NCBI RefSeq assembly: GCF_000497125.1 | Contig: NC_090599.1 | Coordinates: 124,001 to 188,000, forward strand | DNA: 64,000 nucleotides | Source: Spironucleus salmonicida | Lineage: Eukaryota | Reading direction: 5' to 3' | Shown: in pieces, positions 2,702-61,015 of the stretch | How positions within the stretch are numbered: position 1 is the stretch's first letter | How the letters are laid out: every line of letters starts with the position of its first letter | Made by a program: the position numbers and the translations under genes | Notes under the pieces: model-generated | Databases searched by the model: none | Told to the model about the DNA's origin: nothing | What the model saw: the letters and a program-made list of their open reading frames with translations, nothing else

Positions 2702-2711
2702 TTTCCACTCC
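2702..2711 (+). promoter_or_regulatory. C-rich pre-ATG element TTTCCACTCC (RPL22)
   Basis: The same 10-mer precedes RPL27, RPS3a and RPS30. Confidence 0.7.
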
Positions 2712-2718
2712 TTGAGCC

Positions 2719-3057
2719 ATGAATACTTATTTCATTGATTTCACTGAAGCCGTTGAAACCGCCCAGATCGATGTTAACCATTTTGTTGACTTCCTCAAGA
2801 CCTAAATGCGTGTTAACCGTCATAAGGCTGTCCTTGCCAAGTGCTGCACCATCGTTGTTGAAGGTAACAAAGTTACTATCACACCTAAAGAAGATTTTGA
2901 TTTTACCAAACGTTATGCTAAGTATCTTGCTCGTAAATATATCAACACCACCAACGAAGGTACTTATAGAAATATCTTCAGAATCCTCGAAAACGGTAAA
3001 CTTGGTTACAAGCTTGTTAACTGCGCCATTGAAGAAGACGAAGAAGCCCAGGAGTGA
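2719..3057 (+). CDS. RPL22: 60S ribosomal protein L22e
   Basis: MNTYFIDFT...FVDFLKTQMRVN...FTKRYAKYLARKY; acidic tail; one in-frame TAA read as Gln. Confidence 0.85.
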
Positions 3058-3131
3058 TGACTAACGTGAGCCAGATTCACATCAGTCTACTAGTAATAGC
3101 TTAGATTTGATGATATATATAAAAATTCATT

Positions 3132-3869
3132 TCAATCCCACACTTTTCGTGCTATTTCCTCCCCTTGAATATATTCTTTTTTAAGCAACTTAATTTATCG
3201 CAGTCTCGGTGCCACAAACAGTGCTTATTCCATTAATTCAATTTATTTTTTAACTATTTTTACCCAATTAAATACTCTCTATTAAAACCAAAACTAATCG
3301 TAATCATCAGAATATTTGAATGTAATAATAAGTTGTTAAAAGAATGCACATTATATAATTGGGGAATCTTTTAAAATGGTTAGCTTCCTTTATTCATAAA
3401 CTATATTATCAATTTTACGAATAATTGATAATTCTGGAACTTTCTTTTTAATCTCAAATTTATATTAGATAAGATCTAAAAAATTTATTATAATTATATC
3501 ACAGTTTAATATGCAAGGTGTAAAAGATCTTCCTAAAAATTTATATTCAAATACGTCAAACCACCAAGGATAATAATTATCTTTTATAACTATATTTTAC
3601 TATGACAAATCTATTTTATGTGGAGGATTCTATTTTTTTAATTATAATTATTGATTATAGTCTATATAGCTAGTTTAAACAATGCATGGAATTTTACGAT
3701 AATGCTATTACACAGATTAGATTGGTTTAATATCTTGTAGATATTCGCTAATTATTTTTGATGACTATACCTGCTATCTTTTTGTGTCAGTCCATATCTT
3801 TCGTAGTTTTAGGACCGTAGAATAGCTCATTTGTAGAATGGTATGAAATACATATATTATTTTAACCAT
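3132..3869 (-). CDS. Hypothetical protein
   Basis: Open frame ending IARKVWD-TGA; the start may be the later ATG near 3830. Confidence 0.55.
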
Positions 3870-3955
3870 GATGCTAATATATATATGTATTTAAATAATA
3901 TTAAATAATTATATATTAATATATGTATATAATTTTCCTAACTTCACCTCTAAAA

Positions 3956-4789
3956 ATGGACTAACTTATGAATTTCCCTGGTATGGGTATGCCAAAATAG
4001 AATACAAAACAAACTGATTCTTCAGAGACTGTAGTCATATCAACAATCGCTCTCATCAAAATGGTTAAACATGCACAGCGTGGTATCCCTGTTGAAGTCA
4101 TGGGGCTTTGTCTTGGTTCATTTATTGACTAGTACACGATTTATATTACTGATGTATTTGCTATGCCACAAATAGGGTAGTCTGACTCCGTTGAATCAAT
4201 TGATGAGGAGTACTAGGCTGAAATGCTAAATCAGTTGGAAAAAGTTAGAGTTACGGAAAAAGTAGTAGGGTGGTTTCACTCACACCCAGGCTATCATTGT
4301 TGGTTATCTGGCGTCGATCAAAAAATGTAGTAAACATTCGAATAGTTAAATCCTAGATGTGTCGCGATTGTTGTCGATCCTGTCAATTCTGCAAACGGAA
4401 GAATTGAACTTGAAGCGTTTAGACTTACTGAAAATAAACTATCTCTTAGTGCAGGTCCAGATTCACGCATTGCCACTTCTCAAGTTGGTTATTTAAGGAA
4501 AAAAGACCCAAGTTCAGTTCTTCATGGGATGGGTAGTTAATTCTACTAAATGAACATTTAATTTTGTTAAAATGGGGCAGAAAACACTATAACCAATAAA
4601 ATAAGTACTAAAAAATGGCCTGAACTAATTGGTGGAACGACGGTTAATATTATTGATAATATGGACAAAATATTAGACGGTATAAGGAATAACGACCTGA
4701 TTGGTGTAGAAGAAGAAGCTGAAAATTTATTGGACGAAACTGTATAGGGGGATCTTGATCTTGTGTTGAGGGGAATGATGTTCAGTTGA
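3956..4789 (+). CDS. RPN11: 26S proteasome lid deubiquitinase Rpn11/POH1
   Basis: [24 protein letters not shown] motif [23 protein letters not shown]. Confidence 0.95.
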
Positions 4790-5391
4790 GCGATTTTATA
4801 TTTTTTTTTAAATTGAAATAATATTTAAATCTTAATTTTGTGTTAAAAATATTCCATTTTTTGCATTTTCATGTTCAAGTAAAATCAAAAACATTCATTA
4901 GCATTGAAATATAACTAACCTTACAAAATAATCATTATCACTAGGTATGAATCTTACGATAAAATTAATCAACAAATTATTAAAATCATAGCATGTTAAA
5001 ATCAGTTAATTACTTTATTTATTTTAGCGAAACTGATAGAGTAATTGCATTATAACACCATTGGCAATTTATTAATATATTTTAAGGTTAAGAAGATATA
5101 ACATACATATTACTATTATAATTATAACTATGTAATAACTTATTAATATTTTCTTGATCATATAGTTTAGTACAAGAAGTACGAGAAGTCATTTTTAGAT
5201 AATAGTAAATAAATAAAACTTATATTAATCATTTTACGATTCTCTTTAATATGATATATGTATTTATATACCTAAATATTAATTATAAATAAATTTTATG
5301 ACTATGACTAATTTATTACTGTTAATAATAAATATATTTCTATTTTTTGTTCCATTATTTATATATTATAATAATAGGTAACAGGCTTTAA

Positions 5392-6072
5392 ATGCAATCT
5401 GCTTCACGAAGTTAAGGAAATAGAAAATTTATAGCATCACAACATCGAATAGCTAGCTAAGTAAATAAAATACGATCTTATGAGTAAGTTTTATAAAAAA
5501 TTGAAATGATTAAGCCTAATTCTTCTCATTTCTTATCATTGTAAAAACGATCAATTTCACCATAGTTATTCACTAATTTCAGCTAGACAATATCAAAACA
5601 ATTAGATATTGAAAAATTTGATCTAAAAGATACCTAATAATTTAGCTTTAAAGTATAGACAGAAAATTGGTGGTATGATTTCTAATCAGTAAAATTTAAC
5701 AGGTTACCGTTTAATAAAGTAGATGTAGCATTACTACTTAAAAATTATGAATTACTTTTTATGGATTCTAAAACTGAAATCAAACGCAAAAAGAATCATT
5801 TTGTAATACGATAGACAGATGATATTCTTTATTTAAATAATAAAAATATTATTTCAAACAGTGAATCACTTTTTGGAGCGCCATATATAAAATCTTTGAA
5901 TAATTTATTCTATTTTTCGCAACGAACGGATAAATTTAAAATTCAATAATGTTATATGAACTAGATATAAATTATAAATGATATGATGTTAATTTTAAAT
6001 CACGCTTTAAGGATAGCTAAAAAAATGTACAGATTTAAATAAGAAGGTACTAATTTACCATTACTTTAATGA
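5392..6072 (+). CDS. Hypothetical protein
   Basis: 226-aa ORF from ATG to TGA, tail-to-tail with the next gene. Confidence 0.6.
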
Positions 6073-6074
6073 AC

Positions 6075-6599
6075 TCAAAATTTCCTTGTTACGACTACTA
6101 AATTCTATTTATATTCAACGCCAATAATATTCAGTTCAACTAGCTGGCTAATGATTTCTTCGAATTCTTATATTAATGTCTCTTTACTCATATGTTTACT
6201 ACCTTCCAACTCGTTATATTTCAATAATATATCATAAATAGGATGCTCAAAAGCCATATTTTGTATACATTTGAAAAGTATTCCAATCTTTGTTCTATCA
6301 TTTTATACAAGAATTTATATTGTATTATTAGTAAAGTTTTACTCTCCAAAATTTTCAAAAATCAATTAATTTGAAGATTTTTAATATTTAGCTTTTATCA
6401 TCTTTAATGCCATGCCAATGTTTATTTGTTTAGTAATTTTATCACCAAAAATGTTATTATAAATAACTTTTACATCTCCACAATTACTTTCATTGTTAAC
6501 TAATTTAGATAAGTCAAAGTCATATTTCTCACCTTCTAAAAATAACAATACCTCGAGTTTTCTAAAAACTACCTGACTTTATTTTTCTATATCTATCAT
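6075..6599 (-). CDS. Hypothetical protein
   Basis: 174-aa ORF MIDIEKQSQVVFRKLE... Confidence 0.6.
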
Positions 6600-6624
6600 G
6601 AATTTATATACATTTTGCTAATAT

Positions 6625-6933
6625 ATGGATGGCGCTGGAAAATTTTTATTTAATGACTATTTTACATCATTCGCGTAAAATTATGCTTAATAGAGAGGTA
6701 AATTATTAGATTTTTATAAAAATTACAATGAAAGTGTAGTTCGTTAGATTAGTAGCTAGATTACGTCGTCAAATTTAAACGATCCCTGGAACGTAAAAGA
6801 TTTAAATTCAGATATTGGAAAGTAGTTTTGTTGCTCATAAAATTATGCTAAATTGTTGTAGATTGATGTTTAAATTAATTTAGGAAGCAGCGATGAAATA
6901 GTGATAATAGTAATGTTATTTATTACTTAATGA
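6625..6933 (+). CDS. Small hypothetical protein
   Basis: 102-aa ORF MDGAGKFLFNDYF...; divergent from the previous gene with only 25 bp between the ATGs. Confidence 0.45.
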
Positions 6934-7303
6934 TGTATTTACTCAATAAGACAATATAATAAATCTATATCGTCTATTATGATAATTTAATTTTCTTATA
7001 TTTACTATATTTACGAGTTAACATAAATAGCTTACTCATACTCTTATTTAATAAACTCTGTAATAATTTTTCCTACTTGTAATGAGTTATCAGGGTTAAT
7101 ATCCATTTAAAAAATAATAAAATTATTATAAATTCTTTTATTTTTGACAGACTCTTATAGATATTAAAATATATAGTATAAATTATCGAATAATTATACT
7201 TTAAGTTCTTAAATAAAGTTCTATTGAGCAATATCATAAATTTTATTTATTATACTCATTTTAGATAATAACTATTATTATCTAATACACAATATATATT
7301 AAA

Positions 7304-7969
7304 ATGGATATTACTTCTCTATTTATTGAAAACCTTCAAAATGTAAGCTTACAACTAACTGAAAACAATATCAACAGTGTTTATAATAATTTACTTGTAT
7401 CTGTATAAAAAGCGTAATATATACAATAATTAGGGTAATAAGATCTACTGTAATAAATTAATTAATTTTCATCCCTTATTACATAATCCTCTAATATTGT
7501 ATCTAAACATGTTAAAACACTAAGTTATATACAATAGAAAGTATTTAAGTAATAAAAGCTGCTCATTTTGCCACTTATTTCTAATCTATAAGAGTAGATT
7601 TAAAAAATTACATCTATTAATCATTATGAACCTTAGGTATAATTATAAAGTTAATAAGAAACCGTTGAGATTTCAACTACTGCTCTTTAATTATAAGAGA
7701 AGCCTTCTTAAAACATGTATTAAATTAATAATATTTTAAGATAAATATAAAATACACAAAAAATAACAAATGCCGCAATTTAATCTTAAGGGGAGAGTTT
7801 ATGGAGAGTAGGTGACAATTTAGATACTGCTGAAAAATTTTTAGATAGGGCAAATGGTAAATTCTAATCAGCACTGAAAAATGTGAAAGGATATTGGAAA
7901 ATATTACTAATTGTATTCTTATTTGTCTTTATTTATGTTATTGGCAAGGCTTTAGTTAAAAAGCTGTGA
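7304..7969 (+). CDS. Q-SNARE (syntaxin-like), tail-anchored
   Basis: Heptad region IQSQGESLWRVGDNLDTAEKFLDRAN followed by a C-terminal hydrophobic segment ILLIVFLFVFIYVIG. Confidence 0.75.
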
Positions 7970-8208
7970 GAAATTATAATTTTTTTTAATAAATATATTA
8001 TTTGGAATCAGATATTAGCTCCTTAGATATCTCATAATTTTATATATAGTTATAATATTTAATATAAACACTTCAAAATTAAATTGCGTCTCTTTTTATT
8101 ATCTCACATTGTAATTTTCATTTAATTTATCATTTTACCAATAAATTTAGGTAAAGATATATTCTAATATATAAATTTGTTATAAACATTTTATCTAATT
8201 TAATTATA

Positions 8209-9009
8209 ATGAATCCTGCTTTCATCAAAGAAGACTGGCTTACACCATTATTAAATGATATTTAAATAAAAATTCTATGTGCAAATGATATTTCTGAACC
8301 TTTACCAAACACATAAATATTTCATATCTAAAAAATAACCACTGGGAAAGCGTTTGCAGAGTAAGTTATAAGGCATAGTATTTCAAGAACACATTTTCTC
8401 ATTATTTATGATAATGATGGAATTTCTGCACCTTTACTATGGTTTTAGTTCCTTTACTTTGGGCATGCTCTTAATAATTTATCTATAATAAAGGGTGGAT
8501 ATAAGTCATGGTAGGGTGCAAAAGGACATCTCATTCGCCCCAAGTCTGGCTCTTCTTCTAGCTATTCTGCCACTCCATAAATATAAATGAGAATTAGGAA
8601 AGATGAACTAATTGAATTTTGTAGGTAACTTCAAGATAGTGTAATAGTATCAAAAATAGCTGGAAAATATCCAATTCCATCTTAAAGAAAACCAAAATTT
8701 TCATAATTAATAGATTGCCGAGACTGTTCTGAAAATATTTTCCCTGGGGCTATAAACATATCATGGAGTATTTTTATTATTGACGATATAACCGTTCCAA
8801 ATATAGCTATATTTGATGAAAAAAAAGTTAATGTTGAGTAAGGCATAATTATAGTAGGAGATACTATGGATCATTGCGCTATTGTTGCATTTAATGCATA
8901 CTTAAGATGTGGTGAAATAGATAAGATATAAATATATTTTGAGAATATTTAAGACTTAATGGGAACTTTTTTAACAGACAATACATTCCAATATTAGACT
9001 TCTGAATGA
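8209..9009 (+). CDS. Tandem rhodanese / sulfurtransferase-like protein
   Basis: IIYDNDG...LWFQFLYFGH...IIKGGYKSW; IDCR...FPGAINISW. Confidence 0.75.
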
Positions 9010-9046
9010 ATATATTATAATATTATATTTTCCCCCAAAATTTAGA

Positions 9047-9454
9047 ATGAACAAAAGATCTCCATATCATGTTACAGACGATCACTTTAAATAAACATTT
9101 TCTATATCCACAAAATTAAATATTTTAGATTGGATGGCATAAGATAGTAAAAGAACATCATATCAAGCATCTAAATATTTTAATATTAATTCAAAGACAA
9201 TTAGAAATTGGAAAAAGTAAGAGCCTATACTACGTAGAGTAAGAGATCCAGATACAGTTCTGAGAGTCTCTAAACATCAGAAATTTTAATAATAAGACCT
9301 TATTATAACTCCATCTAATAGTTTAAAGTCATCTGAAGTTGATATTGATAAATAATAAGAAAGTTTTACAGCCTAATAATGCGCAGCAAATCAATCAATT
9401 AATATTACAGCCGATTTAGCTAGCTTATTAGAAGCTATGCTAAGAAATTAGTGA
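9047..9454 (+). CDS. Brinker/CENP-B-type HTH DNA-binding protein
   Basis: TFSISTKLNILDW...SYQASKYFNINSKTIRNWKKQE. Confidence 0.7.
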
Positions 9455-9507
9455 ATTGTGTTTAAGTATAATGTTATATTACAAGAATATTCTGATTGTA
9501 TTCAAAA

Positions 9508-9888
9508 ATGTCAACCAAATTTAATTTGGCATTTAATTAAGATAGGAAATACATTCTAAATCAAGGATCATAGGCTGTTGATGCGATGTCTGAAAAAGAC
9601 TACTAAATGTACATACCTGATAGAAAATATAATGTACAACGAAAAGCAGAATTTTAGAAATTGGAGTAAATTCATCAAAGTATGTTCACTTTAGATAGTT
9701 TAAAACACTCTACCATAATATTTACAGATATACCTACAAAGATTGATCCAGTTTTAACCGAAAAATGTTATTAATTAGATGAACTATTTCCAAATGTACG
9801 AATAAGTAAATAGGGAAAAATTAGAAAAGCTAGTCCATTAATGATTGCCAGCTAGCTTCGATAGAGGAATCGAAATAAATAATAGTGA
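9508..9888 (+). CDS. Hypothetical protein
   Basis: 126-aa ORF whose stop lies in a TAGTGA context. Confidence 0.6.
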
Positions 9889-9977
9889 GATAATTAACCC
9901 CAAATTTAATTTATATTGTACTTGAATGTATAATTTAATATTTTTAGCTATTAATATTTTACTTTCACATACTTGAA

Positions 9978-10409
9978 ATGTAATGGAATGATATCATAGA
10001 GTTACCACTCTATGTAATCACAAATGTAGATAATTTGATGGAGCATTTAGGGCTCACAACTGAGGATAGAAACATAGCATAAAAAGTTTCGGATATGGCA
10101 TTAGTGCTATTGGGATATGAATAATATAAACCTAGCACATTTAAAGAAAATGTGTAGTAGAAAGTACTATTTAGCAACAATGAGCTAATTGAACTGTTTT
10201 TTAATTTTGTAAGAAATCCTATGTTAAAAAGTTCAGAAATGGTTCAACTTGCTGATAAAATGAATTTACCAATTCGTTCAGTGAAAGGCTGGTTCTATAA
10301 CAAACGCTCAGACCTAAAAGAGGGAAAATTAACTATTCCTCCTCTTGTCTAAGAAGAAATTGGAGTTGAAATTGTCATTAAACTATTGGAGGCATTTTAA
10401 ACCAAGTGA
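9978..10409 (+). CDS. Homeodomain protein (non-TALE)
   Basis: Homeodomain at about 10149-10328 with F8, L13, L16, F20, L34, L40, V45, W48, F49, N51 and R53 in register (VKGWFYNKRS). Confidence 0.85.
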
Positions 10410-11824
10410 TCATCTTTTTTCGAAATTGTTAGACTTAATTAAAATCCTGTTATAACAGTAAGTTAATTGAAATAATTTGATGTTGCTGATAAAAAGTATC
10501 CTGCTAATGCCATTTTGGAATTATATTTATTTTGTGTGTCGTTTAATTTTCGATTAGTAAAAAAATAGAATATATTTACTAAAAACAAATTAAAATAACT
10601 AAATATATCGTGTAATGAGGTAATAATATTGACATAACTTATAAATACAAAAAAAATACTATGTTTTTCAAGTAATGGTATTTTAAATATAAAGAACGTA
10701 ATTAATCTTACTAGTAATAGTGTTCATAACTTAACCAGTGGTTAAATTGATAAATTAATAAAAATATGCCTTACTTATGATAATAAATCATTAAATATAA
10801 TTATCATAATAGAACTGCAACATATTTAAGTATAGAAATCACTCTATCATAAACTTAATAGAATTTTGTTAAATAAATTTATTAAGATATTTGCATAGCG
10901 TTAATGATAAAGTATTACAAATCAATCGTTATTATTTACTAGTATATATAATTCGATATATGATATCGCAATAGACTTTATTTTTAATTTAGATAAACGA
11001 AAAGAATTGTTATGCCATAAATTTTATCTGTTGACATCTGATATATATCCATTGAAATTTATCTTATATATGAACATAAATTATTATAAGTTTATAGTTT
11101 ACCATCTTAACTGTATAAGTTTTCACTATACAATATATTTGTTGAACTATGGACATAAAACTAAAAAGCTGAAAAATATACTAGATAGATAATAATTTAT
11201 AAAAATTACATAGTTATTAGTGTGCTGTAATATTTTAGACATATAAATTTAGTAGGTGGATATGAATTCTATTTTAACATACTTACTTGATAAAAGATGA
11301 AAAAGAACTAGATATTTTATGAAAAATATGACAGTATTATAGTATTACTTTAACACAATAATATAATTTACAAAGTTATCTTCTAAGTGGATTTTTAAAA
11401 TAAATGATGCATTATCAATAAATTAAATTTACCTGAAAAATTGGAAATTAAATTATTAATTAGAAGACCATAATTACAGTTTGTTTAAAATGGAATATTA
11501 AAATATAATAATGATAATTATTAAAATTTACAGTATATAGAAAGCTAAGATAAATTAAAATGATTAAATTGCTAATGTACACGGTTATTTATAAATAATA
11601 AATATTTTTCTCATTATTTTAAAGTTAAGATCAAAATATTATAATATAAAAGAATAGGATATTATTAAAATTTCATCAACTGCTTCTATTAGTAATATAT
11701 TTTGAATATAAACCTAATGAATTCATATAAATTTAGGCTATAAATAATATATTTTTGGTAAATTTGAATGTTATTATTTAAATAGATTACTATACTATAA
11801 TATACAAATATAAATACAATAATA

Positions 11825-12118: not shown

Positions 12119-12125
12119 ATTATAT

Positions 12126-12587: not shown

Positions 12588-12677
12588 TATGAAATTTGCT
12601 GAAAAATTACTATATATAATATATGTTTTATGCATGTTTTTTAGCGTTTTAATTTTTCTAAAAATACCCTCTCATAA

Positions 12678-17366: not shown

Positions 17367-18095
17367 TCACTCTTCATATAATGATCCAATATATTATTAA
17401 ATTTTAGCCACATATTTTTCTGGAACATCCACAGCTATTAACTCTTCTCCTTTAGTATCACCTCCACTATAAATATACTCTTATAAACCACGCTCATCCA
17501 TCATTTAAATTTCTTTAATTGTAATTAACCCAGCCCAATGATATTAGGCAGTTTTCCATAGAACTGCTTCATTCCCACTAATTACTCGTCTAACTCTAGC
17601 TAATGCATCAACTACTGTAAAAGGACATGTTGATATAATTTATGTTGATTTTTTAAGATATTTAGGTAATTTTCTAGGGGGTTGTATAACAATTTTTTTA
17701 AAACGTTGGACTTATTCCAATAGCTATAATTCTTCCCCAGATAACCTTGGTCTCAATTAAGCTGTTTAGTGCTTAGAGTAACGGACTAATGCTAAGTGAA
17801 TAGTTTATGAAAAATCTAAATTCGGTAGCTCTTCTTAGTGTAAAAACTCTTACTCTCTAAAATTTTCTGCTAGGGCAATTCTAAAAAATTATTATCTAAG
17901 ATAACTGGCTTCTGATGCGGCCTGAATTGCAGCATGAAGTTAAGTATAGGATTAAAATGCTTCTCTAGATAAAACAAGTTATTCATTCGATTAATAAATA
18001 TAATCTGGAGAATCTATTGTCTTAGAATTTGTTAGCGAATAAATAGTTAGATCCACTTGAACAATATGTTCTTGGGATAATATATCAATTGTCAT
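17367..18095 (-). CDS. Hypothetical protein
   Basis: 242-aa ORF; upstream TTTCCACTCTTGA-ATG; ends GAGTGA. Confidence 0.65.
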
Positions 18096-18764
18096 TCAAG
18101 AGTGGAAAAATATAAAACATACTATTATATAATATAATGATGGTAGTATATTCAAAATTTATTACTAATATTCATTATTGATATATAAAATAGTATATAT
18201 ATAGTTTTACTTTAACTTATACTAATTCAGACTATCCACGCTGTAAACATTATTATAAGTAACGCACTGAAATTATCATCTATCTTTCAATAGTTGGTAT
18301 ATATATTAAAAAAATAAACCTGGTAAGATTACTAATGACTGTGTATATTAATTATATAAGAATCGTAGGTTATTTTAGTTAATATTATAAATTAGCCTAA
18401 ATTTTTATAGAAAATAGATTACTAAACGAGCGCATAGTTTTTGCGCCCAACTTTATTTATTCGGATATTGTTGTCTTTGCACATACAAGTATAGTCGTTA
18501 ATTTTATTTATAGGAATTGAAATAAATTAAATAAAGTCATTTATATACATATTATAATCATTACCTCTTTTTTAAACATAAAAGAAATTACTTTCTACCA
18601 AATAGGGTATTATAAGATTTTAAAACGTAAATACTTAAAAGTCTACTTGCTTTACTCCATAGAAACAATAATATTTTTGATTAAACAATGTATCCACGAT
18701 AAAATGAATCAATATATAACCTACCCAATATTATCCAAAATACCGTGACAAGACTTCTCTCACA

Positions 18765-25955: not shown

Positions 25956-26231
25956 TTTGTAATTGGAGTGGATTTTATAAGTTATAGTTACTAAATATAT
26001 ATTTTAAAATAATGATAGTGATAATGAACATTTTCCGTTATCTATTTACTTACCAATTAATTGAAATAAATTTTGTGGTTTCTAATGTGGAAATTTATAA
26101 GAAATTAATTTCTTTTAAATTACATTATACTTTAACAAATATATTCAATCAGAAATAGTGATTTAAAAAAATAATTGTCGCTCCACTTTAAGAATTATAT
26201 TATTATATTATAATTTCAATAAACAGTTAAA

Positions 26232-37084: not shown

Positions 37085-37154
37085 GTTGATAAATGGAGTG
37101 GTTGCACATAATTTGATATATCAGTATATAATATTTATATTTAAAAAATTAGTT

Positions 37155-38880: not shown

Positions 38881-40806
<1,926 letters not shown>

Positions 40807-42414: not shown

Positions 42415-44340
<1,926 letters not shown>

Positions 44341-47153: not shown

Positions 47154-47168
47154 TTTCCACTCCACGTG
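47154..47168 (+). promoter_or_regulatory. Pre-ATG element TTTCCACTCCACGTG (RPL27)
   Basis: Identical 15-mer before RPS3a. Confidence 0.8.
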
Positions 47169-47172
47169 CCGA

Positions 47173-47556
47173 ATGTCCAATATATTCAAAGTTGGTTCTG
47201 TAGTCGTCATCCTCCAAGGTCGTCAAGCTGGAAAGAAAGCTGTGGTCATTAGCTTAAATGCTGGTCACGTTCTTGTCGCTGGAATGAACACTTTCCCTAA
47301 GGCTGTTCTTCCTTCTCATACTGTTAAACAGGCTGAGAAACGCTCTAAGTTTACTACTTTTGTTAAGAGCTATAATCCTAAACATCTTATGCCTACACGT
47401 TATACTCACAAACACACCCTTTAACAGTAAGTTAAGACTGATATGCTCAAGGATAAGGCTCAAAAGGAAAAAGCTGTAAAGAAAATTTAGGAAGCTTTTG
47501 AATCCGATTTCTTAGGTGGTAGCGACAGCTGGTTATTCAAGAAATTACCTTTCTGA
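47173..47556 (+). CDS. RPL27: 60S ribosomal protein L27e
   Basis: VVILQGRQAGKKAVV; FVKSYNPKHLMPTRY; WLFKKLPF. Confidence 0.95.
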
Positions 47557-47686: not shown

Positions 47687-48424
47687 TCATTTAACTTCAA
47701 TGGGCTTACCAAATTCAGTTGAAGTACCAGAGTGAAGCTTGTTGATTCTTTCAACGTTGTACTTAGGGGTGGAGATAACCTTGACACGAGTGATCATGAT
47801 GTCACGAACAGCAAAATTCTTTTTGGCAGCTTCCATAATAGAAGTGTTAATGCTTTTATTGGCAAGACCAGTCATAAGTTTGTGGCAATCAAGATCCTTG
47901 ATGCTAGAGTGCATGGTCTCAAGCATGGCCTTACGTACTAAGTTGAGCTCGGAAGTCTTAGCATAACAGTTGGATTTCTTAATATTTTTAGATTTAGCAG
48001 TGAAACCAGTGGCAAAAACGCGGAGAACATAACCATCCTTGGTAGTAACATCTTAGGTGCAGCTAATGTGAGAACAACCCTTCTTAAACAAAGACTGTTC
48101 ATAGTGGCGGACAACCTAATAACCAGCAAAATCAGTGAGGCATTTTGAATCAGCACAAGAGACAATCTTGAAGTTGAAGTTTGAAGTACCATTTTGAGTT
48201 TCATTTTCAGCAAGATCTCCAAGGTTTGCTTTGACAATGCGACCTTTTACTACTTCAGTAGAAACACGCATACCTGAAGTTTTAGTGACAACGGTTTAAC
48301 CCATATCGGATTTTTTGAAAAGAGTCGGGGCTTAAACGTCATACCATTCTTTTCTGAGGAAAGGATCAGGTTTCGCACGTTGAACTATCTTCTTCTTCTT
48401 GTTAGAGTTGTTGCCAATAGCCAT
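47687..48424 (-). CDS. RPS3A: 40S ribosomal protein S3a (eS1)
   Basis: MAIGNN...[26 protein letters not shown]. Confidence 0.95.
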
Positions 48425-48425
48425 C

Positions 48426-48440
48426 CACGTGGAGTGGAAA
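48426..48440 (-). promoter_or_regulatory. Pre-ATG element TTTCCACTCCACGTG (RPS3a)
   Basis: Reverse complement of CACGTGGAGTGGAAA, 1 nt before the ATG. Confidence 0.8.
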
Positions 48441-50504: not shown

Positions 50505-50518
50505 CTGAAGTTAATATT

Positions 50519-50733
50519 TCACTATGTTTTCACATTCTCCATACCACCTACAATGTTCTCCAGCTCTATAATTCCCAGCCCTAACTACTAGTCGTCAACA
50601 TTTTATTCGCCTTATGCTGTGATTTCGATATGGAGCGTTGGCTCAGAATCGAACTGGGATGGAATACTGCATATGACTTCTTACTAGAACCGACCAATCA
50701 GGCTGTCCGATACGAAGTCGTGTCCAAATTGAT
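50519..50733 (-). pseudogene. 3' fragment of the 242-aa hypothetical gene
   Basis: Matches 40821-41035 only; the 5' part and ATG are absent. Confidence 0.8.
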
Positions 50734-50846
50734 AATTTAAAAAATAATTTTATTATTTTAAAAGAAGATTTTATAAATAAAAATAATAAAAATTTAAGCA
50801 TATTTAAATAAAATAATATAAGTTCTTTCCATTTTTCATTCCCTAA

Positions 50847-52661
50847 ATGTCTGATTATCGTGGAAATGATAGACGTGGTGGATATGGTGATGACAGAAGA
50901 GGTGGGTATGGCGATAGATAAGATAGAGGCTCATATGGCGATAGAAATGGTGGAAATGATAGAGGTGGCTATGACAGAAATAGAGGTGGTGATAGATATG
51001 GTGGTGATCGTTACGGTGGTGATAGAGGTGGAAGTAGAATGTTTCAAGGATAATAAGATAATGGTTCGTGTTTTCCAGCATCGGAAAAAGAGTTATATAA
51101 ACATGCAGATTCAATCGATCCTACTCAAATTGACTATTCATTCTATGATCTGCCTATCAAACTCCATAAAAATAAAAATCCTGATATTGAGCCTTTAGCT
51201 ACATTAGAAGATATGCTTGCATTTTTACCAGCTCAAGTTGCAACAAACATTAAACGTTTAAAATATTAATAACCTACTCCAATTTAAAAGTACTCATTAC
51301 CTATTGCATTTTCTGGGGTTGATTTATTAGCTACATCATAGACAGGTTCTGGTAAGTCGGCAGCATTTTTATTGCCAGTTATTAAAGATATAATGGATAA
51401 TAACCTTAAGGCTATTACTAAATCTCCTCAAGATATCAAAGATATAGGCTGGAGCAGATCACCATTTGGTGGAAGAGCGTAACCTTTTGTTATTGTATTA
51501 AGTCCAACTCGTGAATTAGCTTTGTAAAATTTTAATGCTGCCTGGTAGTTCAGTTATAAAACAGGAATTTTAACCAGAGTTTGTTATGGCGGTGAAGGCA
51601 TGAGAGAATAGAGTTTGGCGCTACGTTGTGGTGCTGATATAATTATTGCTACTCCTGGTAGGGTTAAAGCTTTTATTGAGAGTGGTTAAATAGATTTATC
51701 TTATGTAACAACTTTTATTTTAGATGAAGGTGATACTATGATAGACATGGGTTTTATTAATGATATAAAGGCTATACGTAAATCAATCATAGAATCTAAA
51801 AAAATTGCTTAGGCTGAAAAGACACCTATTTCAGACAGGAAACTGCAAACTTTATTATTTTCTGCTACATTCCCTAAAGAAATAAGAAATATAGCAGATG
51901 AATTTTTAGATACTCCTTATCATTTAGAAATAGGTACTGTCGGAGTAAGTGGAGTCAATATTTCCTAGTATTGTTTTAACCCTTCTATGATTTCTAGATA
52001 TTCTTACCTTAAGGCTATTTTATAGTATCCAGGTAGAGTTATATTATTTTGCAATAAAAAATCTTCGGTTAATTAATTAACCGAATAACTTAAGCGTGAT
52101 GTGGTAAATGGTTCATTATCAAAGATTCCTGAAGATATTCAAACTGAAGTACAAATTATGTTTAATTCTAGAGATGAAGCAGTTTCTACTAACGCTGGTG
52201 AAGAATTATCTAAACCTAGTTAAATAGAGTGTTTATCTGGTGACAATACATAAAGACAAAGAATCATAGTTTTAGATTAATTTAAATCTGGTGAATTGAA
52301 GCTTTTGGTATGCACAGATGTCGCTTAAAGAGGACTAGACTTACCTAAAGTAGATTTTGTCATCAATTATGAAATGCCAGCAAATATTGAAGATTATTCT
52401 CATAGAATTGGTAGAACTGGTAGAGCAGGAAGGAAAGGTACTGCTGTGTCATTTATTGAAAATGGTGATTCTACTTTAATGCTCAGAAAATTAGCCGAAA
52501 ATCTTATTAGTAGCAAATAAGATGTGCCAGAATGGTTAAGTTAATAGGCTAACTAAAGAGGAAATAAAGGTGGTTTTTAGAGAGGAGGTTATTCCAGAGG
52601 TGGCAACAATTCTAGAGGTGGAAATTCATATGGCGGAAGAGGTGGATCATTCAACTGGTGA
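50847..52661 (+). CDS. DDX3/Ded1-like DEAD-box RNA helicase with RGG termini (motif II = DEGD)
   Basis: [42 protein letters not shown]-terminal Trp. Confidence 0.92.
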
Positions 52662-52761
52662 ACAATATTAATTTTATAATATAGATAAACAGATATATTT
52701 TTTTATTAAAGATTTAATTATTTGTATAATAAATTTATAATATTGTACATATAATCGAAAA

Positions 52762-55700
52762 ATGTCGAGTTATGAAAAATTAATTGAATTAAATGTGGCA
52801 AACAAGAAAGCTCCAAAAAATAAAATAGTCACTACAAAGTACAATATTATAACATTTTTGCCTAAATTCTTATGTTATTAGTACATGTAACCTAGCAATA
52901 TATATTATTTACTGAATGCGGTTGCTGGTTTTATCGTATATGTGGTAGCCCCAATGTCTAACGTCCTTCCGATTATTTTTGTGCTGTTTGTATCTGCTGT
53001 AAGAGAAATTATAGAAGATGTAAACAGATACCACTAGGATAATATTTAAAATAATTATTAATATAGAATTTTAAGAGGTGGTTAGTATTTACTTACTAAA
53101 TCTAAAGATATTTAATAGGGTGATATAATTAATTTATCCTTTAATTAGGAGGTCCCTGCTGATTGTCTTCTATTGAATGTTAACGATACATCAAACGTTC
53201 TCTTTGTTTCTACTGTCTAATTAGACGGAGAAAGCAATTTAAAACGAAAATATACTTTAAATTAAGCTATAAATAATCCAGCAAATGTTTAAGTTGATTT
53301 ACCTTCGTCAGATATGGCAACTTTTAACGGAGTTTACAATAATAGTATAGAGTTTAACATACAAAACGTTATTTTAAAAGGTATGAAAATAAAATCATAA
53401 TCATAACTAGTAGCAGCTGTAATATATACAGCTAAACAGACAAAAATCATGGTATCATAGTCTAAACCTAGACAAAAATAGTCAAAGTAATCATAAAGGA
53501 TGATTAAAATCATTATGATTCAAGCTTTAATTTCAATAATTCTAATGTTTGTTCTACCTTTTCTTTCGATAGTTGGATTTCAGCTTTCCAAAAATGAGCC
53601 TTACTTTGCTGCTGAACCGACATCGTTAACTGCAATTTATATATAAAAATGTATTATATACTTTATAGTTTTAGCATATTTTCTACCCATTAGTTTATTT
53701 GTTGCTATTGAAGTAATACGCATGCTAATGACGTACTAATTCAATTTAGATCGAAATTACCTATCGAAAGAGGCAAAATTATACTTTTAAGAGCATGGAA
53801 AATTAGATATTTCCAATGAAGAATTAGGGAAGCTTAACAAAGTTCAACTATCAGCGACAGTTAAAAATTCTGCAGTAATTGAAAACTTATTTGAAGTTGA
53901 TGTTATTTTCAGTGATAAAACCGGAACTTTGACAAGGAATGATATGAAATTGGTATAAACTTGCGACATGAATAATAATATTTTTGATATTACTACTAAT
54001 GAAAAGATACCAGAGGTGTAGATATTTTTATTGGGATTATGTAATACGTTATATTAGTTTGAAAATGATATTTAAGGTGAATCATTAGATGAAATTGCAT
54101 TTTATAAAGGCGCATTATAATACGGTATGTAGCTTATATAAAGGTACGCAGATTAAGTTATTTATCAGTATAAAGGCCAAGAAATTATCTATTAGATTTT
54201 GGCTATTGTACCATTTAGCTCTGATCGAAAACGGATGTCAATAATCTTGAAAGAAGTAAATACTTGCTTTACTCCTGTAGAAATCTCTTCACCAAATTAA
54301 CCTTTTGTACTAACTAAAGGAGCGGATAATGAAATTTTAAACTTGTGTACAGGTAATTTTACCTCTGCTTAATTTAATATTCTATAATTTTCTTAAAACG
54401 GGCTAAGAACACTAGTCTTTGGTGTAGGTAAATTGGATGATGATTTCATAGTTAATTGGGTTTCAAGATTTAAAGATATTGTGAATCTTGGGGAGCATAA
54501 CCATATTTATTAATAGCACGTTCATTTAGTTGAAACTTTAATTATACCTTTATTAATAACAGCAGTAGAAGATCAATTATAAGATAATTTAAATGATACA
54601 CTTAAATCATTTTAAGAAGCATAAATTTAACTATGGATGTTAACTGGTGATAAAAATGAAACTGCTTTAGCTATTGCCCAAACTTCTGGTATGATTAGCA
54701 ACAGTGACATAGTTATTCAACTAACTGATATTACTGATCAAGATTCAGATGACTCACTATTGCTAAAAATATTTAATAATTTGAAAGATGTTAAAGAAAT
54801 TAGAAAACTTCTTAACAATTTTAAGAAATAATATTATATAAGAAAACCTATACGAAATAAAGTTAACTGCTTCAAATCTGAAATAAATTACTCTATCCTA
54901 ATTGATGGATACAATATTAAAAAACTTTAGGATTTAGGTTTAATTCATGTTTTTTTCTTTATTGCTTAACAAGCTAAAACTATTATTGCATGTAGGCTGA
55001 CACCGGCGCAGAAGGCATTTATAGTATAGGAAACAAAGCGTGTTAATACTACCCTGACGACTATGGCTGTTGGAGATGGAAATAACGATGTCCCCATGAT
55101 CATTCAAGCGGATGTCGGCGTTGGGATTGCTGGAAAAGAAGGTCTATTTGCGTGTAATAATGCAGATATAACCTTTACCGAATTTTCGCATCTGAAAAGA
55201 GCAATTTTAGTTAATGGACGATACAACCACATACGATTTAGCGAATTAATTGACTATAACATTTATAGAAATTCTATCATCCCTTGTATCACTATAGTAT
55301 ATTCATTTTACGATAAATTCTCTGTCAATATATTTTTTGATTCATTACTTCTCCTCTTGTACAATCTAGCCATATAAAATTTTCCTATCCTCTTCCAGTC
55401 AATTACTGTAAAGGATATCTAAGAAGATGTTTTACTTAATATTCCGTGCCTTTATAGACTTTCACGTGACAAATAACGTGCTAGTTTCAAATCTGTATAT
55501 TTACGTGTCGCTATTGGAATATATCAGTCAATTATTATCGTACTGGTCACAAGATTCACGTTTGGATATGGAATGATAACATAAAGTGGTTAAAATGGAG
55601 ATTTTAATTGTGCTTTATAGTTTGCATTCGTATCACTTATAGCAATTACGACAATCGAGTATTTCTTATACAATAACTTTTACACATATTTCTCTTTAGC

Positions 55701-55938
55701 AGCAGTTCTCCTGATTTTCATTCTCACCGGTTTGGCAATGATTTTTGGCAATTATTCCACGCTATTTGGCATCACTTAGGTCGCCTCTGTCGTATTGTTA
55801 TAAAATAATATGCAGTTTTATTTAGTTTTTTTCTGCACCACGCTAATTTCTTCAATTCCATCAATACTTTTGGTTCTATTAACACGATATTACTTTCCCA
55901 CCTCAACTGATTTAGCCAGAAGCTATAAAATAGAGTGA
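52762..55938 (+). CDS. P4-type ATPase (phospholipid flippase)
   Basis: NKIVTTKY; LDGESNLK; PISL; FSDKTGTLTRN; LTGDK; GDGNND; GIAGKEG. Confidence 0.95.
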
Positions 55939-55948
55939 AAAATTTGCT

Positions 55949-57595
55949 TCACAAAATCGCTTTTACGAACAGGTCATCAAATGCGTATTTTTCATCGCTC
56001 TCTCGCTATAATATCATGAATTCGGCACTACTGCAGTCTTGACACAGCTTGTCCCCACCAGCAATTTTAACGATTTCCCATCGCCTCAGTTCACAATTTT
56101 AGCATAATTTTAGTTGCTCCTACTTCAAAAATGCTTGTGCGAACTATGTAGCTGTTACGTCGAACTTCTTCTAAATAATTACTGATTCTGCACCTATAAG
56201 ATTAAAACGAACTTACAGACTCTAGTAACTATCAATAAGTGCTTAAATTGACGCTAGAATAGTTTTTAATTATTATTTTTGACTGCTAAAGTTGAGCTGA
56301 TTTTGAGTGTGGGAAACTATATTTAATGGCTTTTGGTGAATAAGAATCTTCTGTTTAACAAGAGCATGCAAACTGAAAAGCTATTGGAATTAGCTGTTTA
56401 GCTAAGTTTCCAATTAATTTATAATCTAAATATGCTGGTTATATTTGTTAAGTTGGGTTTCGTCTGAGGAAATCGCAAAATTGTCGACTTAAAGGTCTTA
56501 AATCTGCGCATTCTGCCTATAAATCTGCTACTAAATTGTGTAGATATCAGGTTCTACAGATTTAAGGATGTCTGCTGCATCTGATGTTGATGTATGAATT
56601 AGGTCGAATACTGCAGAAAACTGTTTTGAGATTCTGTTAAAACGAACCTTATTTTGAGCAAAAACTTCAATTTCTGGAGATAATTTAATTTCATTTTGTT
56701 GCTTAAACGCTTATAAACTAAGCAATTACTATTTCAACTAATTAAGCACTGAACTATTGGGTAGCATTTTTAAAATATCAGAAATTATTTCATTTTCTGT
56801 TCCATTTTAAGAAATTTACTAAATTTCAGGGATTTTGTATTCACATAAAAGCTCTATAAAGCTTTTAGTAAGTGAATTACTTGCACTCTGGTTCTTGATT
56901 CTGCAATAATTTTTGGTAAAAGTTTGCTCAATTTAATTGATTTTTGCAATGTCATCTTCGGAAATTTATGATTTTTTCTAGCCCTCAATTTCGCGATTTA
57001 ATTATTCTGTAGTAGTTTCTTTAATTTACTAAAGGGAATATAGCATTTACAGTTATTTTATGTAATACTAGCAAATTATTCTTGCTTCATTTTCAGCATC
57101 GCAGATTGTAGATTCGTCTTTGCAAAAATTAAGGTAGTTTTTCTACAATGTTTAATAGGTGTTTTTATCGAGCTGGAGACTACTAAGATTCTGAATTTCT
57201 GAAATAAGTTAATGGAAATTCATAGTAACATTATCTTCAAGTACATTAAATAATTAATTGTCTCGATCTCTTATAATTAGATGCCTTAGAAACTATGATA
57301 CATGATCTCTAGAAATTTCTAGCTATTCTTGGGTAGATGGTGTAATATCAATTAAATTTTAGAGCGATAAATTAAGATTTTTACTTATTTCGTATATTTG
57401 GTCTTTATAAGACTATGAAAATGACGATTTTTACAAAACCTCGTCTTGGCATTATTAGTCAACACCATTTTAAAGTACCAGAATATACTACTTAATAGAT
57501 TCAATCTCTAATAATAAACTTTATCTTTGTTAAAACTTAATTAACTTTGTTAGACCATTTTCACCTAATGATAACTAAGGCTGTTCTGGGTTCAT
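55949..57595 (-). CDS. Long coiled-coil protein with degenerate C-terminal RING (BRE1-like)
   Basis: 548-aa Q/E/L-rich ORF ending LCQNCELRRWEIVKIAGGDKLCQDCS...FDDLFVKAIL. Confidence 0.6.
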
Positions 57596-57664
57596 TGAAG
57601 AGAAAGTATTAACTAATATTTATAATATAATAATTATAAATATAAATATTTCAGAGTTGCAAAA

Positions 57665-59194
57665 ATGAATGACATAGATGATTATATGGAAGTTGATGTT
57701 AATTTAGATTAAATTCCAGACATGGACTCATACGAGAGACTAGAAGAAGCCCTTAATTTCTATTAGTAACCTTAAATTATGATTAAAATATAAGGATTTT
57801 CTCCTTTTATCAATAATCCATAGTGTTTTGATGATCAACGATTCTCACAAGAATTATTTGATAATACTAAGGAAATACTTGAAACAGTAAGCAGAGCTTC
57901 TATCATTCATACTATATCAAATGGATTTTAATAAATTGCTGATTTTATTTCAATTAAATCTGTCTCATAATATACGATATTGTTTTTAGATACTTTGATT
58001 AAAACAATAAATAATGCGGAAAAATTCGGTTTTACAGATGATTTATGCCTCTCCATTTTAGCTATTATTACAACTATTGAGAGATTTTTGTAAGTTTTAT
58101 TTTTAAAACCAGAAGTCGCTTACACCTAGTATGAATATTATATGAATATCGGAGTATAGTTTTATCCCCTGATATTCACACTTGTCAAACTTTTTGGAGA
58201 ATTTTCGTAGGAGTTACAAAATGCTATTTCGTGTACAACTGAACCATCAAGACATGCAAATTTACTAATTTAATTGTTTATTGTTTGTAATGACTGGCTA
58301 TTACAGGCATCAAACTACCCATTTACCTCTTCTGCGCTTATATATAAACTTATGGAAACTCCTGAGATTTCATAAGAAATAGTATTTTCTCTAACTCAAG
58401 ATCATCCTCTTTCTCATTGCATAGTTTCAATCTTTTCAAATCTAGCATTTGCTGACTGGAGTGAAGATTTCACTCTTAAAATCATCAAAATTTCATCTTA
58501 ATCACTCATTTCAAATGTTCTAAAAAGTGAAAAATTGGCCGAAAAGATAATGAATATTTTATGGAATTTCAACTTAATTGAAACACACATTGACCTCACT
58601 ATTTCATGTGCTGCAATGCTTGGATTTTCTGGATTTTATGAGAATTACGAGCTTGTCACTAAAATGATTCTGCATATTTCAAATGCAAGTCAAAATGTCG
58701 AATTAAGTAGCGTACTTGCAGTATGTTATGATTTATTTTTATCTAATATCGAATCATTTGAGGAAAACGATTTGGGTGTTAAAATAGCTGTCCATTTACA
58801 AGATTTAAATATTAGAACACGTGTTATTTACAGAGTTCTTGGCAGTAAATTTTTATGTAAATTTTTAACTGAAAAAATAGCTAAAAGGGTTTATAACTAT
58901 GCAGCGCAAAGTGTGATTTAGCTTTTCAAAACTAACGATTTAAGCCTTAACAATACATTCCTATCAGTTGTCGTAAACTTGAAAATGTCTTATAAATCAA
59001 TTTTGAAAAATATCTCACTTTCAGACGAAGCACGGAGAATTTTCGCTATAAAACTAAATAAGGGAGTCGAACAATGCGATTTGCTAATGCTATCATTAAT
59101 TGGAGAGATTGGAGAAGGAGAAATAAGAGAAGGTGAATTATTAGAAGAAACGACATAGAGATTAGGCCTTAGTGGTATATATGGGTTTAAGTGA
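57665..59194 (+). CDS. Hypothetical alpha-helical (HEAT/ARM-like) protein
   Basis: 509-aa ORF containing track ORF 58535..58921; ends AAGTGA. Confidence 0.65.
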
Positions 59195-59220
59195 GCCATT
59201 ATGTAAAATATAAATTGAAA

Positions 59221-59312
59221 ATATACTGACTGGACATGATAGTGTACAGTCAAACGGTATTTGAGTCGTTTTGACCATACAATAAATATGTTTGCATGGC
59301 TTCGACGATCAT
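59221..59312 (-). ncRNA. Candidate structured small RNA (two hairpins), class unknown
   Basis: Intergenic; stems GCCATGCAA/TTGTATGGT plus GTCG/CGAC and TGACTG/CAGTCA on the minus strand; TTTCCACTTT element immediately upstream. Confidence 0.4.
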
Positions 59313-59440
59313 TAAAGTGGAAAGTTGAAAGTAGTCTGGAATAAATATATATAATACTAAGATAGTTGGAACACAGCATGAACTCAAAAATTTCGGCATA
59401 TTATATATAATAGATAAATAACTAAAAAATTCATTCCGCA

Positions 59441-60745
59441 ATGTCTGGTGTAAGCAAATAGTAGTAAAACAAATATAGATTTGTGGCAAAGAAAGGTTCT
59501 GGAGCATTTGCCGATGTAATATAAGCATAAAATACGAAAACTATGGAAATGGTAGCAATTAAAAGACTAAAATAAGTTTATAAATCAGTGGATAAGATTA
59601 CTAAACTACGCGAAATATAAGCACTTAAACTACTTTAGAATCATCCTACTGTAGTACATTTACTAGAAATTTTATTTGACCGTAACACAGGAAAACTCGC
59701 GATGGTTTTTGAATTAATGACTATGAATTTGTATGAAATTATTAAAAATAAGAAGTAGTACTTGTAGGATAGATAAATTAAGTTTTACTTCTTTTAGATG
59801 ATGGATGGCCTAGCTGCTATGCATGCAGCTGGATATTTTCATAGAGATATTAAACCAGAAAATGTTTTAATGAAAAAGTAAAACGATTCTTATTTGACTC
59901 ATGAAGTTAAAATTGCCGATGTAGGATCCTGCCGATAGATAGATACTCCACATCCCTATACAGAATACATTTCAACAAGATGGTATAGGTCTCCAGAAAC
60001 TATCTTATCAGATGGAGTTTATGGTCCAGAAATGGATATTTTTGGTTCTGCATGCTTATTGTTTGAACTATCTGCTCTCTTTCCACTTTTCCCTGGAAAG
60101 GACGAACTGGATTAAATCTATAGAATCCATTCTGTACTTGGAACGCCATAATAGTAAGTAATGGATAGAATTCGGAAAGGTGTAGTTAATAACCCAATTA
60201 AAGGTGACTTTGCACCTGTTAAGGGAACCGGAATTCATCGATTGGCAACAAACCTTAGACCAGACTGCTTGGATTTACTAGAAAAGATGCTAACTTATGA
60301 CCCATTATAAAGATTGACTGCTAGTTAGGTTTTGCAACATCATTACTTTGATGATATACCTTCTATATTATCAGATGCTAGAGCTCAAAAAGCAAATAAG
60401 GAATTAATTAATCACCTAGAAAAAACTTGGTGCAGTGTTAGAGGACTTACTGAAGTTCCTATCAAATAAAAATAAGTAAATTCTGATTTCTCAGATGATG
60501 AAATTAATAGGGATGATAAAGGAATTTAAAATAAAACGATAAAATAGAGAGTTAAAAAAGTTGTTAAACATTAATAAGCGACTAATGGATAGTAAAGTCT
60601 TCTATAAGTGGTCCCTTTGTAAAAGAAGAAGGTAGATTAGAATAAGTAAAATGGTCCAATTATAGTAAGCGTACCTTTACCAGCTCTAAATAAAGGTATG
60701 ACAAACCAATTTTACAAAGCTGGATTAAAAATGATGAAAAAATGA
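59441..60745 (+). CDS. CMGC kinase, RCK family (MOK-like)
   Basis: KKGSGAFADV; LREIQALK; HRDIKPEN; DVGSC; YTEYISTRWYRSPE. Confidence 0.92.
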
Positions 60746-60780
60746 GTGACTAATTTCTTTTTCTTTTAGGACTTATTAAA

Positions 60781-60999
60781 TCACTCGGAAACGAGACCTC
60801 TCTTCTTTCTGATGATGAAAGAGTTAGGTGTAAGCTGCTTGCCATTATCCATGAGATCATTGGAGAGGAAGAATTTTTTATACTTCTTATTGAGGAGAGC
60901 ACGACCACGAACGGAACGGGCTTTAGGTTGTTTTTCAACCTTAGGGGTTTGTTTACGAACCTTACCAGCGCTAGAAAGACCACCGTGTGCACGAGCCAT
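60781..60999 (-). CDS. RPS30: 40S ribosomal protein S30 (no ubiquitin-like fusion)
   Basis: HGGLSSAGKVRKQTPKVEKQ...GRA...PNS. Confidence 0.95.
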   Translation of the reverse strand: MARAHGGLSSAGKVRKQTPKVEKQPKARSVRGRALLNKKYKKFFLSNDLMDNGKQLTPNSFIIRKKRGLVSE

Positions 61000-61002
61000 C
61001 AG

Positions 61003-61015
61003 CGTGGAGTGGAAA
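61003..61015 (-). promoter_or_regulatory. Pre-ATG element TTTCCACTCCACG (RPS30)
   Basis: 13-mer shared with RPL27 and RPS3a, 3 nt before the ATG. Confidence 0.8.

Follow-up and report, generated by a model that had tools for sequence, protein, structure and literature searches.

A pyrimidine-guanine step behind a C-rich promoter core probably marks the transcript start of ribosomal protein genes in Spironucleus salmonicida

Introduction

Xu et al. (2014) described an 11-nucleotide (nt) C-rich motif located about 10 bp 5' of the ATG in 16.7% of Spironucleus salmonicida genes, among them 71 of 82 ribosomal protein (RP) genes; the motif is tied to high expression and is called a putative promoter element, and a run of A's before the ATG was proposed as an initiator (PMC3916229). 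Myb proteins are expanded in S. salmonicida (PMC3916229). Here, we describe the form that this element takes at RP genes, starting from a window of 64,000 nt (contig NC_090599.1, positions 124,001 to 188,000 of the forward strand; assembly GCF_000497125.1) in which RPL22, RPL27, RPS3a, and RPS30 are each directly preceded by the 10-mer TTTCCACTCC, and extending to the 14.5-Mb genome (G000). Judged by its position and distribution against the published text, CCACTCC is the core of the known Spironucleus C-rich core-promoter element, and since Xu et al. report it at 71 of 82 RP genes, the link between motif and RP genes, on which a first-pass annotation of the window laid stress, is already in print. 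What is new, and strong as a sequence pattern, is an RP-specific rule for the bases that follow the core: the first pyrimidine-purine (YR) step in the spacer between core and ATG is a pyrimidine-guanine (YG) step, which probably marks the start of the transcript.

A 5' terminal oligopyrimidine (TOP) transcript starts with a C, followed by an uninterrupted run of pyrimidines, and its control depends on mTOR/LARP1. The metazoan TCT initiator, which is TRF2 dependent, and the 5' TOP form, as is probably the case here, a core-promoter class of RP and translation genes that is set by the sequence of the start site; initiation is at a C within the pyrimidine tract (YC initiation), and the tract becomes the TOP (PMC10695386, PMC8047918). 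In S. salmonicida, by contrast, the tract is common to other genes and probably lies upstream of the start, and the RP mark is a purine (G) step. An alternative Trichomonas motif, M5 (CCTTT), is enriched in RP genes. The Trichomonas vaginalis initiator (Inr), TCA+1Py(T/A), which is bound by IBP39, is a further example, in a related metamonad, of short elements near the ATG that set the start (PMC4450334), but it has another sequence, and the start predicted here lies downstream of the C-rich element rather than inside it. The IBD domain of the initiator-binding protein (PF10416) has no match in the S. salmonicida genome, although the controls are silent too and the result is thus uninformative.

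In the text of PMC3916229, we found no RP-specific sub-form of the motif, no downstream YG/YA rule, and no start sites. A literature search, whose scope excluded subscription papers, theses, the Fig. 1C logo, Figure S4, and Protocol S1, found the C-rich motif only in that article, again with no RP-specific sub-form in its text, and a promoter passage is absent from PMC9509377.

Results

A YG step follows the core at ribosomal protein genes

Promoters were collected blind to the spacer as T plus core plus an ATG within 12 nt, using the patterns TTCCACTCC or VTCCACTCC and then ATG. The patterns gave 85, 62, 17, and 80 matches, from which duplicates were skipped and with 65 of the 80 in the last set fetched directly; spacers of 3 nt or fewer after TTCCACTCC are incompletely covered. 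The open reading frames (ORFs) were classed by Pfam, with a few that were judged spurious by eye left unscanned, and after collapsing duplicates there are 187 rows, comprising 50 RP promoters, 120 non-RP promoters (ORF of at least 45 amino acids [aa]), and 17 with short ORFs that were dropped. A stricter filter, with an ORF of 100 aa and AT-rich upstream DNA, yields the 97 non-RP promoters used for comparison.

In this spacer-blind set, all 50 RP promoters have YG as the first YR step of the spacer, compared to 9 of the 97 non-RP promoters. The non-RP step is mostly YA, again +3 to +5 from the core (we refer to the two forms as G-type and A-type). Over all RP families located, the first step is YG in 74 of 74, 3 to 6 nt past the core, with two of these resting on a tied core alignment, and the G is at +3 in 29 families, at +4 in 27, at +5 in 14, and at +6 in 4. 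When the RP spacers are shuffled one by one (5,000 shuffles), the step is YG in 28.1 of 50 on average and in 39 at most, so the rule is positional and goes beyond G-richness. Non-RP promoters avoid a YR step at +2 (10 versus a null of 24.9; P = 0.0002) and favor one at +3 to +5 (66 versus 55.7; P = 0.015). A YR step at a near-fixed distance behind the core, in both gene classes, resembles a start site. The YR rule for transcription starts is established, and a supporting passage is found in PMC10695386.

The spacers also differ in composition. RP spacers are 5 to 11 nt long with a G fraction of 0.29, compared to 0.05 in non-RP spacers, and their commonest lengths are 6 nt (28 of 74) and 9 nt (20 of 74), whereas non-RP lengths show a flat distribution. 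Only 1 of 50 RP spacers ends in AAA, against 27 of 97 non-RP spacers, and 73 of the 74 families have no AAA before the ATG, in contrast to the A-run that was proposed as the initiator. The end of the C-rich core lies 5 to 11 nt from the ATG in 74 of 74 RP families; the core is exact in 62 and has one or two mismatches in the other 12. On its 5' side, RP promoters have a strong T-rich run into the core, often ATTT and with TT at -9/-8 (T at -9 in 40 of 50 versus 48 of 97; A at -4 in 35 of 50 versus 34 of 97).

The G-rich spacer could in principle be a by-product of high expression or of local GC bias, with no function of its own, and it is true that RP coding regions are GC-richer than the genome and that genes with the C-rich motif are highly expressed (PMC3916229). 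However, composition-preserving shuffles stay below the observed count (maximum, 49 of 65), and actin, histone H2B, and Ran have an A-type spacer, from which it follows that the YG rule is not general to housekeeping genes. We thus regard a neutral origin as very unlikely.

The rule holds in genes located without the motif

Because the rule was chosen after about 15 spacer features had been tried, it was tested on genes found blind to the motif. Codon usage pointed to L23a, S15a, and S19, three RP genes with variant cores, and the rule fits in 3 of 3 cases. Nine more were located by a Pfam genome search with the prediction written beforehand (L34, S13, L11, S16, S9, L4, L14, S5, and L7a, each with one or two mismatches in the core); YG is at +3 to +6 in 9 of 9 (shuffle P = 0.0002), two of which depend on the choice between tied alignments considered below. 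Twelve further RP families came from G-containing patterns and are therefore not independent tests. RPL18a was located in three copies, but its start lies outside the stretch examined and it is not counted, and RPL6, RPL7, and RACK1 were not located among the RP genes sought. Two non-RP L7Ae-family genes that were fetched with the RP genes are A-type; at two L7Ae-family snoRNP-type genes, L011:1501-1530 and L438:200-226, the C-rich core is in tandem and the spacer is A-type, which sets them apart from RP genes with this fold.

Searches with altered cores added no RP genes. TCCACTCD+SG (31 matches) and TTBDACTCC+SG (32 matches; control, 40) include no RP gene on inspection, with part of the ORFs scanned by Pfam, and TTCCACTTC has 63 matches that include the already known S15a and S19, with none of 20 others fetched being RP. 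A subunit-specific spacer length, suggested by the first 55 families (7 nt or fewer in 18 of 23 40S genes versus 11 of 32 60S genes; P = 0.002), failed in 19 later families (7 of 9 versus 7 of 10; P = 0.96) and was rejected.

The four ribosomal protein genes of the window

TTTCCACTCC has four matches in the window, where shuffled sequence averages 0.06 and none of 100 shuffles yields four, and each copy directly precedes one RP gene, as the first-pass annotation had noted; the spacers and distances to the ATG that it gave are also correct, with ACG itself present in three of the four genes. The genes were identified by Pfam using loci L149, L043, L043, and L045 for RPL22, RPL27, RPS3a, and RPS30, respectively, which have identical DNA; the window uses genetic code 6, in which TAA and TAG code for Gln. 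A codon-usage scan of the window revealed no fifth RP gene. The weaker cores reported before the ATGs at 18095, 25955, and 37084 are likewise present, and the features are as follows (window coordinates).

2702..2711, plus strand: TTT and C-rich core CCACTCC (core 2705-2711), 5' of RPL22; pattern match
2712..2718, plus strand: RPL22 spacer TTGAGCC; predicted start at G 2714, in the first YR step (TG)
2719..3057, plus strand: RPL22 ORF, 112 aa (code 6); Pfam Ribosomal_L22e, E 5.5e-15 (L149)
47154..47163, plus strand: TTT and C-rich core (core 47157-47163), 5' of RPL27; pattern match
47164..47172, plus strand: RPL27 spacer ACGTGCCGA; predicted start at G 47166, in the first YR step (CG)
47173..47556, plus strand: RPL27 ORF, 127 aa; Pfam Ribosomal_L27e, E 2.6e-22 (L043)
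48431..48440, minus strand: TTT and C-rich core (core 48437-48431), 5' of RPS3a; pattern match
48425..48430, minus strand: RPS3a spacer ACGTGG; predicted start at G 48428, in the first YR step (CG)
47687..48424, minus strand: RPS3a ORF, 245 aa; Pfam Ribosomal_S3Ae, E 5.8e-50 (L043)
61006..61015, minus strand: TTT and C-rich core (core 61012-61006), 5' of RPS30; pattern match
61000..61005, minus strand: RPS30 spacer ACGCTG; predicted start at G 61003, in the first YR step (CG)
60781..60999, minus strand: RPS30 ORF, 72 aa; Pfam Ribosomal_S30, E 1.8e-15 (L045)
37095..37101, minus strand: core CCACTCC of a non-RP gene (ATG 37084); A-type spacer ATTTATCAAC, with TA as the first YR step (+5)
25965..25971, minus strand: core CCACTCC of a non-RP gene (ATG 25955); A-type spacer AATTACAAA, with TA as the first YR step (+5)
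18099..18105, minus strand: variant core CCACTCT of a non-RP gene (ATG 18095); spacer TGA

In the last of these, the G is at +2, outside the RP range of +3 to +6. Near RPS30, the gene order at window 59 to 64 kb (RPS30, a prefoldin-like gene, and a DEAD-helicase gene, the latter two named by inspection of their translations only) resembles the RPS30-prefoldin 6-RNA helicase region of PMC3916229 Fig. 1, as its legend describes it. An HSP70/BiP-like gene, named by inspection and with no family hit, is present in three copies with identical upstream sequence (38881-40806, 42415-44340, and from 48579 on the plus strand); the first two form a tandem unit of about 3.5 kb, and the third has a short divergent promoter region in common with RPS3a.

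The 10-mer is not specific to ribosomal protein genes

Genome-wide, TTTCCACTCC has 358 matches, compared to 9 for a reversed-pattern control. Among the first 30, 11 are directly before an ORF of at least 100 aa, and 6 of these 11 ORFs are RP genes; the 10-mer is thus not RP-specific. The core with an ATG within 12 nt has 1,002 matches versus 113 in the control, some of which are repeats, and these counts are inflated by a subtelomeric array (G000:C1:9174-47383) with a period of about 345 bp and CCACTCCCAATG in each unit. Eight of the first 30 10-mer matches (L001-L030) have GAT directly 5' and a start codon far away, and many non-promoter matches lie inside antisense open frames (GVEN/EWKI-type peptides). 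Sixteen of the 30 are in an antisense open frame of at least 200 codons, but so are 6 of the 11 promoter matches, which makes the antisense-frame test weak, and the excess of the 10-mer over the reversed control is only partly explained. The RPL30 and RPS24 introns bear the S. salmonicida branch-point motif, and a third copy of it, at L049:1699 on the plus strand, is probably one of the two published hypothetical-gene introns.

ACG and CACGTG are one spelling of the RP form

The first-pass annotation viewed an ACG extension of the motif, with the E-box-like palindrome CACGTG in two of the four window genes, as RP specific and as a candidate binding site, an E-box or the like, for a transcription factor devoted to RP genes, which would thereby make up a regulon. 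A class-specific promoter form at RP genes is borne out. The 13-mer CCACTCCACG has 30 genome matches (control, 15), of which 18 have an ATG 3 to 6 nt away; 17 of these 18 are RP genes, from 15 families, and the remaining 12 matches lack an ATG within 28 nt. Among the promoters collected blind to the spacer, 15 of 50 at RP genes and 1 of 97 at non-RP genes have ACG directly behind the core, and 11 of 50 and 0 of 97, respectively, have ACGT there. The enrichment of ACG is therefore real, but its reach is small, since among the 74 RP families ACG is present in 15, the full 13-mer in 13, and CACGTG, including at RPL27 and RPS3a, in 8, whereas the YG step is present in all 74.

CACGTG fails as the mark of an RP regulon, most members being without it: the E-box is a palindrome bound by basic helix-loop-helix (bHLH) proteins, and here 66 of the 74 families lack it, and where present it overlaps the presumed start. 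A fixed composite site would have constant spacing, whereas the YG lies anywhere from 3 to 6 nt past the core. We conclude that ACG(TG) is one frequent spelling of the predicted RP start site and a sub-case of the YG rule, and we consider a dedicated ACG/E-box factor very unlikely. The HLH family (PF00010) has no match in the genome, with controls equally silent, and this search is hence uninformative. Thirteen of the 15 ACG spacers are 6 or 9 nt long, placing a near-cognate ACG in frame, an observation made post hoc.

G-type spacers outside the ribosomal protein genes

Most non-RP genes with a G-type spacer are unannotated; those with family hits include TCTP, ABCE1/RLI, an eIF3i-like gene, and eIF5A, together with an eRF3-like GTPase and an Mrt4-like gene whose names are inferred. 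Ribosome-biogenesis genes with Cbf5-, Brix-, Nip7-, Pno1-, and POP1-family hits are A-type. The core and an RP-type G spacer are also found at two AT-rich, promoter-like sites without an ORF, L274:1502-1560 (G000:C4:512446), with 6 codons, and L363:1430-1521 on the minus strand (G000:C4:363127), with 1 codon; the first 30 nt of the former resemble the 5' part of the RPL30 intron. It is possible that these are small non-coding RNA genes, although neither has an Rfam match and their folding is no better than that of shuffles (z = -0.15 and -0.84).

Probable start of ribosomal protein transcripts

The pattern suggests a mechanism in which CCACTCC would sit directly 5' of the transcription start and position RNA polymerase II, which would start at the first YR step 3 to 6 nt past the core. 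The RP promoter class consists of a T-rich run, the core, a YG step at +3 to +6, and a G-rich spacer of 5 to 11 nt with no AAA before the ATG; most other motif-bearing genes, including those for ribosome biogenesis, have YA at that step. RP mRNAs would then begin with G and have leaders of 1 to 9 nt, mostly 3 to 7 nt, and therefore the pyrimidine tract would not be part of the mRNA. We favor this reading as the probable one, if with some reserve, and such a class may serve co-ordinated high or regulated expression.

Several observations agree with a start at the G. Giardia leaders are 1 to 10 nt long (PMC1805757), in line with the 1 to 9 nt expected of RP leaders if the G is +1. In RPL21 (L080:1510-1520) and RPL39 (L123:130-138), the core is immediately followed by an out-of-frame ATG whose G coincides with the predicted start; a transcript that begins there no longer contains this ATG. 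Overall, an ATG is present in 2 of 65 RP spacers, compared to 8.0 expected. RPS13, RPL11, and RPS5 have in-frame ATGs further 5' that are misleading for gene calling.

The closest mapped transcripts are those of Spironucleus vortens, for which Hudson et al. (2019) determined the 5' ends of five RP mRNAs by rapid amplification of cDNA 5' ends (5'RACE); the leaders are 2 to 12 nt long, and none is reported to start with a C-rich or pyrimidine tract (PMC6679479). At Rps15, a pyrimidine run comes after a TTTT-CCACACC core, and the transcript end maps to the first G beyond that run (PMC6679479, supplementary files 2 and 7), and three more products align to a genomic G or read G at the first position, give or take one (PMC6679479).

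These ends bear on the proposal that the pyrimidine-rich element is itself the mRNA 5' end, a TOP-like leader for translational control, as the first-pass annotation had suggested. TOP tracts mark many mammalian RP mRNAs (PMC8047918), and TTT before the core is commoner in RP promoters (36 of 50 versus 29 of 97). However, TTT plus core in 29 of 97 non-RP promoters means that the element is not restricted to RP and translation genes as in TCT/TOP systems, and the tract is interrupted by an A and common to about a sixth of all genes (PMC3916229). None of the five S. vortens products begins with such a tract, where the poly-dC primer would hide only leading C's, and the Rps15 end is downstream of its core (PMC6679479). 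A TOP-like leader is thus extremely unlikely.

The dedicated ACG/E-box factor, the neutral by-product, and the TOP-like leader all fit poorly, and the strongest competing reading places the start at the A within CCACTCC or at an A just after it, with the G-rich spacer acting as a 5' untranslated region (UTR) that carries an RP-specific element for translation or RNA stability. The core does fit a metazoan-type initiator, YYA+1NWYY. It also resembles the Trichomonas Inr TCA+1Py(T/A) (PMC4450334), 44 of 74 RP genes have an A directly past the core, and the G-type spacers of TCTP, ABCE1/RLI, eIF3i-like, eIF5A, and eRF3-like genes are on kinds of genes that are under translational co-control elsewhere. 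But an earlier start would put the out-of-frame ATGs into the RPL21 and RPL39 leaders, 30 of 74 RP genes have no A after the core, and in S. vortens the mapped Rps15 end is 3' of the C-rich core (PMC6679479). The RPL21 and RPL39 ATGs and the Rps15 end favor a start downstream of the core, and we consider an earlier one unlikely.

A number of points weigh against a start at the G. The S. salmonicida start sites given here are predictions from sequence, and the C|A step directly at the core end in 44 of the 74 RP genes offers an alternative start. The S. vortens data come from another species, with upstream genomic sequence shown only for Rps15, in which the G is 10 nt past the core rather than 3 to 6 nt; Rpl7a starts with AC, three products begin with a mismatched T, and the G of Rpl30 is possibly non-templated (PMC6679479). 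The rule itself was picked post hoc, and L34 and S16, two of the nine blind genes, each have two tied core alignments of which only the upstream one gives the G. Nor is the G-type exclusive to RP genes, being present in 9 of 97 non-RP promoters in the blind set and in 27 of 140 over all queries, which are partly G-selected, and matches to a variant core, CCACTTC, include no RP genes among 20 fetched, although 9 of these have G first.

RNA contigs (four runs from one study, their RNA status being a guess) cannot show a start and were not used as evidence. Among the contigs listed, those at a kinase gene (ATG 47033) end 5 to 12 nt inside the ORF in all four runs, and adapter-joined contig ends are 3 to 13 nt inside RPL27 and RPS3a. 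Poly(A) loose ends are present at window position 50521 in two of these RNA runs, near the third HSP70/BiP-like copy.

Discussion

Diplomonads have minimal promoters and leaders of only a few bases, and about 80 RP genes need co-ordination. A one-base rule that all 74 RP families obey yields precise predictions of where transcripts start, and if it holds it would aid the choice of the true start codon where upstream ATGs mislead, as in RPL21, RPL39, RPS13, RPL11, and RPS5. Tentatively, Spironucleus may have independently evolved a start-nucleotide code in which RP genes and some translation factors start with G and the rest with A, the cap-adjacent G and leader being read by a cap-binding or initiation factor; we see this as a possibility worth stating rather than a probable one. 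If it is true, a single core would serve more than 1,000 genes, with TCTP, ABCE1, eIF5A, eIF3i-like, and eRF3-like genes among the G-starters, and recognition of the G and of a G-rich leader of 1 to 9 nt by such a factor would bring this group of mRNAs under joint control. Such a code would be a purine-based counterpart of the metazoan TCT/TOP system, in leaders too short for other UTR signals. If the YG rule holds, RP core promoters defined by the first base of the transcript would have arisen in metamonads independently of the animal TCT.

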